UHGV virus genome: UHGV-0105323
DNA: 21,941 nucleotides
From: a virus
Strand: one strand, 5' to 3'
The notes under the pieces were generated by a model that was not told where the DNA came from, did not search any database, and was given only the letters and a program-made list of their open reading frames with translations. Below, in pieces: positions 5,987-6,750 of this stretch. Numbering within the stretch: the first letter of the stretch is position 1; the number at the start of each line of letters is the position of its first letter. The translations under genes were made by a program, and so were the position numbers.

Positions 5987-6517
5987 ATGAATAAACAATA
6001 CAAACTGGTTGTTAAAGGGATAAATAATTACCCGGATAAGATTACTGTTACTGTGGCACTGGAAATTGGTGGGTATCCGTCACTGTTGTTGCCAAATGTG
6101 GCGATTAGTCTTGACCGTACTGAAGGTGCCACGCTGGAGTTTTACGAAGCTGAGGCGAAAAAACAGGCGAAGCAGTTTTTCATGGATATTGCTGCCGCTT
6201 TATGTGAAGGGGATGAGCAGTCGCCGGAAAAGCGCCCCATAATTTTAGAGGCGCAGGATGTGTTGATAACCTACAGAGGAAAACTACCGGGAATAATTAC
6301 TGGTTCTCTGAAGACGCCACCGACGGCATTGCGGTCAGAAAACGATGATATTGAATCACGCATTGAAAAACTGGAGTGCTATATCGCTGAATTGAAAAAA
6401 AGCACCCCAACAAAAAATGAGGTGCTTGCAGCAGATGAAATGAAAGAAACTATTCTTGATCGCGCGGCGCATCTAAGCTGCGCTTCACTGTTGAAAGAGC
6501 ATCTTCAGCAGCCTTGA
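5987..6517 (+). CDS. Hypothetical protein (176 aa) inserted between holin and endolysin
   Basis: Starts 5 nt after the holin stop with a good RBS; region is AT-richer than its flanks. No recognisable motif. Confidence 0.5.
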   Translation: MNKQYKLVVKGINNYPDKITVTVALEIGGYPSLLLPNVAISLDRTEGATLEFYEAEAKKQAKQFFMDIAAALCEGDEQSPEKRPIILEAQDVLITYRGKLPGIITGSLKTPPTALRSENDDIESRIEKLECYIAELKKSTPTKNEVLAADEMKETILDRAAHLSCASLLKEHLQQP

Positions 6518-6662
6518 GGAATCTTTTATCATCACGAGCAACTGTCTTTGGTATTTCTTTAATTAGATGTTCCATTTCGGCGATCAGGTAATCTGACACA
6601 GCGTTATTTTTACTTAGTGCATCCATTGCTTTGATTATCTTTGCGAGGCAGCCATCTCGCAT
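6450..6662 (-). CDS. Possible small helical protein (about 70 aa), convergent with and overlapping the 176-aa gene
   Basis: Reverse-strand ORF in the 233-bp gap between the 176-aa gene and the endolysin; product from the internal Met (MRDGCLAKIIKAMDAL...) looks helical. Weak RBS; could be a chance ORF. Confidence 0.25.
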   Translation of the reverse strand: MRDGCLAKIIKAMDALSKNNAVSDYLIAEMEHLIKEIPKTVARDDKRFLKAAEDALSTVKRSLDAPRDQE

Positions 6663-6750
6663 TGTTGAGTTTACGCCAGTGCCCACCACTGGCGGGCTGA
6701 AGACTTAACATATCCAGGGATTCGGAACCGATAAATCCTGATAAATATCC

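Follow-up and report, generated by a model that had tools for sequence, protein, structure and literature searches.

The window analysed in the present work is a stretch of 21,941 nucleotides (nt) from the virus genome UHGV-0105323, taken at its full length, and the subject of the analysis is the segment at positions 5987-6750, which lies between the holin and endolysin genes of a phage-21-type lysis cassette and contains a forward open reading frame (ORF) of 176 amino acids (aa), referred to here as ORF176, together with a reverse-strand ORF that overlaps its end. The cassette has a dual-start holin of the S21 family, an endolysin with a signal-arrest-release (SAR) segment and Rz/Rz1 (Rz, PF03245, at 7777..8244), all of which are expected of its type, but the direct adjacency of holin and endolysin is absent, the two genes being separated by 768 base pairs (bp). 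ORF176 starts at the ATG at 5987, after a 4-nt spacer (GGCG) that follows the holin stop, with a Shine-Dalgarno (SD) sequence, GGAGAG, at 5974, and its stop is 233 bp from the endolysin ATG at 6751. The reverse ORF, at 6450..6689, is 79 aa long if started at a GTG codon and 70 aa if started at the ATG at 6662; it shares 68 nt (6450-6517) with the forward ORF, the last 22 codons of each being involved. The coordinates, the holin spacing, the ribosome-binding site, the 233-bp gap and the reverse overlap are all present as the original prediction of this locus described them, and so is the AT-richness of the segment relative to its flanks: the guanine-plus-cytosine (GC) content is 44.6% in ORF176 and 43.5% across 6326-6700, against 53.7% in the holin gene and 54.1% in the endolysin gene. 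The features of the locus are as follows, where E denotes an expectation value and pLDDT the predicted local distance difference test score of an AlphaFold2 (AF2) model:

5767..5982, plus strand: S21-type class II holin (pinholin), 71 aa, dual start MYQM; PF04971, E 9e-33; phrog_9876/phrog_20
5987..6517, plus strand: long form of the YdfR family (DUF1327), 176 aa; PF07041; phrog_2091
5987..6211, plus strand: N-terminal domain of ORF176, aa 1-75, three beta strands and a long helix; AF2 pLDDT 65-89
6212..6340, plus strand: predicted disordered linker, aa 76-118; pLDDT below 50 for aa 74-118
6341..6517, plus strand: C-terminal helical tail, aa 119-176, with the motifs KKSTPTKNE and ILDRAAHL; predicted helices 113-138 and 143-173; homologues
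6393..6427, minus strand: intrinsic terminator of the reverse gene, AAGCACCTC-loop-GGGGTGCTT-TTTTTTT; terminator scan and conservation
6450..6643, minus strand: reverse-gene remnant, codons 28-91 of an intact 91-aa gene; phrog_18136, E 5e-41
6635..6643, no strand: deletion scar, a single 9-bp copy of TTATCTTTG; alignment to the intact alleles L004 and L005
6644..6689, minus strand: spurious 5' extension of the reverse ORF, formerly upstream sequence
6683..6704, no strand: right-hand repeats CCACC (6683) and CTGAAGAC (6697), the right edge of the segment missing from a 114-aa form and common to all long variants
6751..7284, plus strand: SAR-type endolysin, 177 aa; PF00959, E 1.4e-24; phrog_7

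The N-terminus of the endolysin, MNAKIRYGLSAAILALITAGASAP, reads as a Gly/Ala-rich, weakly hydrophobic segment.

We regard the identity and anatomy of ORF176 as a YdfR-family protein as close to settled. The Pfam model PF07041 (DUF1327) matches aa 1-112 with a score of 141.7 bits against a cutoff of 25 (E 9e-42), spanning profile positions 1-92 of 93, so that the earlier view that the protein contains no recognisable domain does not hold; phrog_2091, a family of 183 positions with no function label, matches aa 1-171, and proteins of this kind are named YdfR family by the NCBI Prokaryotic Genome Annotation Pipeline (PGAP). The gene also occupies the position characteristic of the family, flanked in its lambdoid prophage by a class II S21-type holin and a lysozyme: the order in the Qin prophage of E. 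coli K-12 is essQ (holin), ydfR (103 aa), rrrQ (lysozyme), and the order in Shiga toxin (Stx) phages is S, a 114-aa YdfR, R. A megablast search with the DUF1327 part alone found 6,139 places, distributed over at least 2,878 of 5,426 complete E. coli genomes (at least 53%). Because of these copies, together with those in K-12 Qin and the Stx phages, the presence of a YdfR gene at the S21-type holin/endolysin junction is the common state in E. coli and not an unusual insertion, so that the proposal of cargo inserted between normally adjacent genes does not hold; the gene is a conserved occupant of the lysis cassette in related prophages, which is half of the outcome that the original prediction had named as telling against it, although the gene has no known function, and the description of it as a late-operon gene tightly coupled to the holin is borne out. 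The long-form tail found in the window is rarer, 6345-6700 being matched in 136 of the 5,426 complete E. coli genomes.

All the copies examined have an intact 176-aa ORF, among them those in the nearest genome (L001), the alleles L004 and L005 and the viral loci, at identities of 70-95%, and several 176-aa proteins are named as intact “YdfR family protein” by NCBI (P0013, P0020). In the nearest genome, which is 99.7% identical, PGAP nevertheless calls the copy a pseudogene, “incomplete; missing C-terminus”, a label that appears to be an artefact of comparison with references of 268-305 aa. The ratio of nonsynonymous to synonymous differences (pN/pS) for the forward gene is 0.63 against the O103:H2 copy and 0.45 against K-12 ydfR, the latter at saturated divergence. 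A comparison of the window (5987-6100) with 99RCEF (L004 1788-1900) gives five nonsynonymous and no synonymous changes in the first 37 codons (N2K, Q4K, K6E, N14H and N37Y) and identity over the rest of the ORF; this count is too small for significance, and the changes may represent allele shuffling or diversifying pressure.

An AlphaFold2 model of ORF176, based on 51 homologues, has a beta3-helix fold in aa 1-73 and two helices within aa 113-173, and the N-terminal domain is 43% identical to K-12 YdfR over aa 1-74 (E 1e-17). Neither the sequence nor the model contains a hydrophobic, transmembrane or signal segment, and because no hydrophobic segment is present the protein is expected to be cytoplasmic. 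The YdfR family as a whole is a mosaic in which an N-terminal domain of two allelic types is followed by a linker ending in ...GSLKTPP and then by one of several alternative C-terminal modules. In the window the linker holds the left-hand repeats CTGAAGAC (6308) and CCACC (6317), which mark the break point of the short 114-aa forms. The 114-aa form of the Stx phages (L007 2072-2203) does not have the stretch enclosed by the two CCACC repeats (window 6317 and 6683), a repeat pair that is itself flanked by the copies of CTGAAGAC at 6308 and 6697, and its ORF simply runs out of frame past the repeat junction, ending in ...TPPLA and a stop codon. On the basis of this alignment, and of remote relatives which have the N-terminal domain, the tail and the reverse gene, it is plausible that the long form is the older and that the short forms arose by short-repeat deletion, a direction of change which is suggested by sequence comparison and not demonstrated by a phylogeny. 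The junction between the holin (S) and endolysin (R) genes is a recombination hot spot; it seems prone to short-repeat deletions, of which the loss of 100 bp in the window, described below, is another example. Approximately 60 bp ahead of the endolysin ATG (6690-6750) are near-invariant across all junction variants, and this interval contains no obvious SD sequence before the ATG (...AATCCTGATAAATATCC-ATG).

The reverse ORF of the window is what a deletion has left of a real gene. Its aa 16-79 are identical to aa 28-91 of the protein encoded in 99RCEF, and its match to phrog_18136 is limited to profile positions 18-87. The intact gene, which encodes a “hypothetical protein” of 87-91 aa (phrog_18136; e.g. 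WP_021565043.1), is present in 99RCEF and in O103:H2 CEC12044, and when the window is aligned to the intact alleles, precisely 100 bp are missing from it, with the 9-bp direct repeat TTATCTTTG at the boundaries. The missing DNA carried the SD sequence AAGGA, spaced 6 nt from the ATG, along with the start codon itself and codons 1-27, which encode a helix, LFDRIFTLELQVGF, that is the best-conserved part of the family and is kept even in remote relatives, so that the N-terminal helix, SD and ATG of a full-length phrog_18136 member are all absent from the window copy. The deletion leaves the region upstream of the former reverse start in place, and in that upstream sequence no SD precedes either the ATG at 6662 or the GTG at 6689. 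Because the reverse ORF has lost its ribosome-binding site, its start codon and its conserved N-terminus, there is no working two-gene pair in the window, and the reverse gene is very probably non-functional there. A search for the reverse gene in genome_contigs found nothing. A junction-spanning search located the region in 43 complete genomes, 16 of which have the deleted allele (unannotated there) and 27 the intact one; the forward gene is intact in all 16 genomes that lack an intact reverse gene, and the deleted form also occurs in 5 of 21 IMG/VR loci.

The intact reverse gene is clearly protein-coding and under purifying selection. Across copies from E. coli, Citrobacter and metagenomic viruses, its own frame has a pN/pS of 0.06-0.29 and no stops, whereas most other frames have values of 0.65-5 and contain stops; the antisense frame that shares third codon positions, at 0.17-0.47, is a mirror of the coding frame. 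The suggestion of a genuine reverse-strand gene can therefore be retained for the family as a coding sequence, although only the 3' two-thirds of that sequence lie in the window.

The reverse gene also has its own intrinsic terminator, the hairpin of which lies approximately 20 nt beyond the reverse stop and within forward codons ~136-148 (KKSTPTKNEVL). Citrobacter, viral contigs (L028) and the remote relatives L033 and L036 retain this hairpin, with CAC/GTG replaced by CGT/ACG. Pairing is found in 86% of the cells of the alignment, compared with 33-62% in controls with slid partner columns, and at two pairs both sides have changed; with an alignment of only six sequences, covariation scores modestly, at a level that 38 of 500 shuffles reach. 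A search of Rfam returned no match in 5600-7400. With its own terminator, a GC content of 43.5% against 54% in the flanks and an orientation independent of the operon, the reverse gene has these properties of a moron, and it is an autonomous unit which is interlocked with the forward ORF both by the coding overlap and by the embedded terminator.

The tail of ORF176 and the reverse gene recur together in other settings. In Citrobacter sp. Cpo113 the reverse gene has an 85-aa homologue (70% identical) immediately upstream of a holin-lysozyme-spanin cassette, and no YdfR gene occurs in the vicinity. This homologue is convergent with, and overlapped at its end by, a free-standing 57-aa ORF (L008) which is 57% identical to aa 122-174 of the window protein and is preceded by GGGAGG-N5-ATG. 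In six IMG/VR contigs (L025-L030) a reverse homologue with 73% identity is opposed by a free-standing 51-aa ORF with AAGGAG ahead of it, and the pair is flanked by a glycosyltransferase-like gene and by HNH-terminase genes. A profile search of 1.8 billion representative proteins found only eight clusters in the reverse-gene family, and every remote member with readable context lies antisense within a prophage late or lysis region, with its 3' end overlapped by an operon-strand gene (L031, L033, L034 and L036). Three of these four partners are related to the window tail: the sequence ...EKRPEKTEAQ...IL(S/N)WAARL forms the end of the L033 and L036 partners, and the L031 partner has the ALDWAAS part only, while the fourth (L034, 61 aa) has no similarity to the tail. 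The partners in L033 and L036, of 144 and 245 aa, have an N-terminal domain resembling DUF1327; hhalign matches the YdfR alignment to the 144-aa partner over 124 columns that cover the N-terminal domain and the tail (E 3e-5, probability 74%), and BLASTP links the 245-aa partner to the 144-aa one (E 4e-26). By sequence comparison these matches are suggestive of a shared architecture in which a DUF1327-like domain is joined to the tail.

The ILxWAAxL motif is conserved in L036 even though the overlap there is only 20 nt, and it is therefore not merely a shadow of the reverse gene. Because the codon-substitution test is not decisive, the coding status of the small partner rests on the maintenance of its ORF, on its strong SD sequences and on this motif. 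Whether the tail and the reverse gene form a real functional pairing we consider evenly balanced; the interlocking of tail and antisense gene with an embedded terminator appears to be new to the searchable literature. The convergent pair that had been proposed for this locus is thus found elsewhere as a recurring combination of tail and reverse gene, although in the window it is broken and its reverse member is a remnant. On one JGI contig (L009 6185-6313, minus strand) the ORF that resembles the tail partner lacks its own start codon and is displaced by one frame from the end of a 155-aa ORF, an arrangement suggestive of a frameshift or of faulty assembly. A link to SlyX by way of the free-standing L031 partner (Pfam E 0.11; SlyX also binds RNase E) was rejected, since the window tail has no SlyX match and coiled coils cross-match.

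In the searchable literature DUF1327 comes up in a single paper, and there in passing, while E. coli ydfR is treated in substance in one paper only (Gopel et al. 2026, RNA Biol, PMC13232886). In that work K-12 YdfR aa 1-72 was recovered three times in a two-hybrid screen, full-length K-12 YdfR interacted with RNase E 1-597 in the bacterial adenylate cyclase two-hybrid (BACTH) assay and co-purified with RNase E 1-598, and eluates of Strep-YdfR contained DNase-resistant nucleic acid, with RNA co-eluting; the paper also cites a published envelope-integrity screen in which ydfR was a hit (PMC13232886). The explanation that best accommodates the locus as a whole, and which we hold with moderate confidence, is that ORF176 is a late gene encoding a long form of YdfR which contacts RNase E and/or RNA and whose tail is one half of a convergent module. 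The Q-antiterminated late transcript would be the source of the protein, which would be translated in coupling with the holin as a soluble cytoplasmic product with a beta3-alpha N-terminal domain, a floppy linker and a helical tail. The N-terminal domain would most likely bind the catalytic half of RNase E, RNA, or both, by homology with K-12 YdfR, so that the target would be RNA metabolism late in infection and not the envelope; for the homologue in the window, to which the K-12 result is extended by analogy, this RNase E mechanism is tentative and on balance doubtful. The tail would serve as a docking site for the reverse-strand protein where the reverse gene is intact, and the other half of the module would be that all-helical protein of 87-91 aa, encoded on the opposite strand with its own SD sequence and with its terminator inside the forward ORF.

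A number of observations weigh against this explanation. The identity to K-12 YdfR is no more than 43%, and the experimental data for the family are limited to K-12 YdfR. Overproduction of K-12 YdfR changes few transcripts and neither slows nor arrests growth (PMC13232886), and the effect on RNase E may be weak or conditional. With regard to the module, the Pfam DUF1327 model has no match to the L033 and L036 partners, and the hhalign probability of 74% applies to one of the two remote partners and is nil for the other; the small partner has an own-frame pN/pS of 0.42-0.56, the lowest of the six frames by a small margin, and part of its conservation is certainly an imprint of the terminator and of the C-terminus of the reverse gene. 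A simple, insensitive scan for a sigma-70 consensus promoter ahead of the reverse gene found none, either in the window or in the intact allele. Finally, PGAP marks the forward gene as a truncated pseudogene, and its pN/pS is approximately 1 among very close alleles, which differ by few changes; the constraint on the forward gene is only moderate overall, and weak judging by these close alleles.

Several other explanations of the locus must be considered. One of them, which we think improbable, is that YdfR is a cytoplasmic lysis-timing factor which acts on the pinholin or the SAR endolysin and is modulated by the reverse gene. T4 RIII, which binds the holin T, is a model for such a role, in which YdfR would bind the charged cytoplasmic tail of the holin. 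The placement of the gene within the lysis cassette in thousands of prophages, its distance of 4 nt from the holin stop in the window, the overlap of K-12 ydfR with the rrrQ start and the adjacency of reverse-gene relatives to lysis genes are all what this explanation predicts; the absence of a transmembrane or signal segment from the sequence and the model is not, and the L028 pair lies near terminase genes and not near lysis genes. Phage 21, moreover, lyses with S, R and Rz/Rz1 alone. The hit on ydfR in the envelope-integrity screen, as cited in PMC13232886, would fit a role in lysis, but it could be a polar effect on rrrQ, and the overproduction of K-12 YdfR had no growth effect (PMC13232886).

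A more specific proposal for the pair is that the tail and the ~90-aa reverse protein constitute a cognate two-protein switch, conserved in the late regions of enterobacterial prophages, or alternatively a trigger of abortive infection or exclusion; this too we judge to be unlikely. In the form of a switch, the reverse protein would be made in the lysogen, would dock on the tail, and would thereby restrain the late RNase E- or RNA-binding protein, and the short YdfR forms of the Stx phages and the deleted allele in the window would then be decayed versions of the switch.

The idea that the locus is a moron of the toxin/antitoxin type or one that acts in defence or exclusion, in which a lysogen-made reverse protein and a tail-bearing protein would be harmful when unbalanced, is less credible still. 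The conservation of the convergent pair over unrelated contexts, the low GC content of the segment and the autonomy of the reverse gene, an antisense unit with its own SD sequence and terminator in the manner typical of morons, are in keeping with it, but the toxin, defence or exclusion activity that the original prediction had listed among its candidate roles receives no support from PADLOC, Pfam, NCBIfam or fold searches. The matches in the first three do not rise beyond noise (the best in PADLOC-DB 2.0 are Cmr5, E 0.026, and the Aga nuclease, E 0.014), and the fold searches returned no toxin-like fold; nor do Pfam, NCBIfam, PHROGs or PADLOC assign a function to the tail, to the reverse gene or to its alternatives. 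A type II system is not indicated, since the genes are convergent, belong to no Pfam, NCBIfam or PADLOC toxin/antitoxin family and have only generic helical fold matches, and a type I system is not indicated either, since neither product has a hydrophobic segment, both are acidic (isoelectric point ~5) and helical, and there is no Rfam match. Both proteins are small; 16 of 43 genomes tolerate the loss of the reverse gene and keep the forward gene intact; and most YdfR genes have no partner at all, while in the window the pair is broken.

A similarly low probability attaches to the possibility that the locus is decaying, non-functional DNA, in which the forward ORF would be a truncated pseudogene and the reverse ORF junk within a defective prophage. 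The reverse gene is demonstrably truncated, the prophage has no TerL, portal, capsid or tape-measure genes, and the pN/pS of the forward gene among close alleles is near 1, but the 176-aa ORF is free of stops in copies diverged by up to 30% and is named as intact by NCBI elsewhere, phrog_2091 is a family of similar length, and the tail has free-standing homologues with strong SD sequences; the PGAP label “incomplete; missing C-terminus” on which the possibility also draws is explained by the 268-305-aa references. Least probable is a role for the reverse transcript as an antisense RNA of the kind exemplified by lambda oop and P22 sar, which would base-pair with the late mRNA and adjust the expression of YdfR and the endolysin, possibly even after the coding part was crippled, because, although the 68-nt coding overlap and the terminator put ~120 nt of the transcript antisense to ORF176, the deletion spares the DNA upstream of the former start and a P22-type sar RNA occurs elsewhere in the window, the strong protein-level constraint on the reverse gene makes the protein the selected product, and neither a promoter (by the sigma-70 consensus scan) nor an Rfam match was found.

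Other parts of the window are of interest in their own right. The endolysin and Rz genes are likewise separated, by ~490 bp (7285-7776) which contain small ORFs, among them a 71-aa ORF at 7408..7623 (phrog_1115); related phages have other small ORFs or an ant gene in this interval, which constitutes a second variable slot of the cassette. The prophage is defective, since 9589-12800 contains no genes for the large terminase (TerL), portal, capsid, tail tube or tape measure: a small terminase gene (9589..10152, PF03592) is followed by a gene for an OmpC/NmpC-like porin (11383..12546, Porin_1, E 1e-140) and then by tail gene L (12714..13454), whereas the genome closest at the lysis region (L001) has TerL and a capsid gene at the corresponding place. 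The small RNA STnc100 (Rfam, 134.7 bits) lies at 2654-2862 on the plus strand, between genes of the TerB family and of the SASA-esterase (nanS-p-like) type (1915-2418 and 3085-5046), a site which is the late-region position of stx in Stx phages and at which the window has TerB instead of a toxin gene. A P22-type sar antisense RNA (RF00262, 67.6 bits) is found at 14540-14605 on the minus strand, directly upstream of a KilA-N/P22AR antirepressor gene (14607-15536, plus strand), with which it forms an immI-like module within the tail-gene region. Three tRNA genes with the anticodons CAT, TCG and TCT lie at 1566-1816 on the plus strand, downstream of a DNA methylase gene; the tRNA with anticodon CAT is annotated as tRNA-Ile by PGAP in a near-identical genome and as Met by ARAGORN.

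For the window itself the outcome is mostly one of clarification, as it consists of a family catalogued in Pfam, PHROGs and RefSeq, located where the family normally is, and of a remnant left by deletion within a defective prophage. The wider relevance lies in the fact that more than half of complete E. coli genomes, and most Stx-converting phages, have a YdfR gene within the lysis cassette, and that a first biochemical handle on the family now exists (PMC13232886). The long, probably ancestral form, with its tail interlocked with an antisense gene, leads to concrete constructs, namely a tail-less protein, the tail only, and the tail with its intact partner. The analysis also corrects an annotation habit in which long forms are called pseudogenes by PGAP and the partner is left unannotated or is labelled “hypothetical”.

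The closest known relative for comparison is K-12 YdfR (b1555, P76160; Qin), which has the DUF1327 domain, the position between holin and lysozyme and the 43% identity over aa 1-74 in common with the window protein, but which at 103 aa lacks the linker, the helical tail and a reverse-strand partner; in addition, the ydfR stop overlaps the rrrQ start, while in the window 233 bp separate the two genes. The 114-aa YdfR of Stx2a phage EH2201 (BCI49731) shares its flanks, and 90% identity over aa 1-112, with the window protein, and it differs in lacking the segment that holds the tail and the reverse gene. Other long variants share the theme of a DUF1327 N-terminal domain, a variable C-terminal module and a small convergent reverse gene which overlaps the end, but their C-terminal modules are different and their reverse genes unrelated: the 211-aa, 176b and 183-aa forms, which have the E-tail, are convergent with an 86-aa reverse gene (phrog_2572), and orf5 of Stx2 phage 86 (268 aa) is paired with orf6 (phrog_1853), while the 296-aa form has no reverse gene. 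The possibility that phrog_18136, phrog_2572 and phrog_1853 are distant homologues was rejected, as hhalign found no similarity.

Phage proteins that target RNase E include T4 Srd, T7 gp0.7 and phiKZ Dip. If the K-12 result transfers to the window protein, then ORF176 would resemble these in being a small phage-encoded protein that contacts RNase E in lytic growth, though it is without sequence or fold similarity to any of the three, and its timing would be late and not early. The reverse gene may in turn be compared with the lambda morons bor and lom: no promoter was found for it by the simple scan, and unlike those genes it has a 3' end and a terminator that are interlocked with late-operon coding sequence, but like them it is a compact, AT-richer unit with its own terminator, lying antisense in the late operon.

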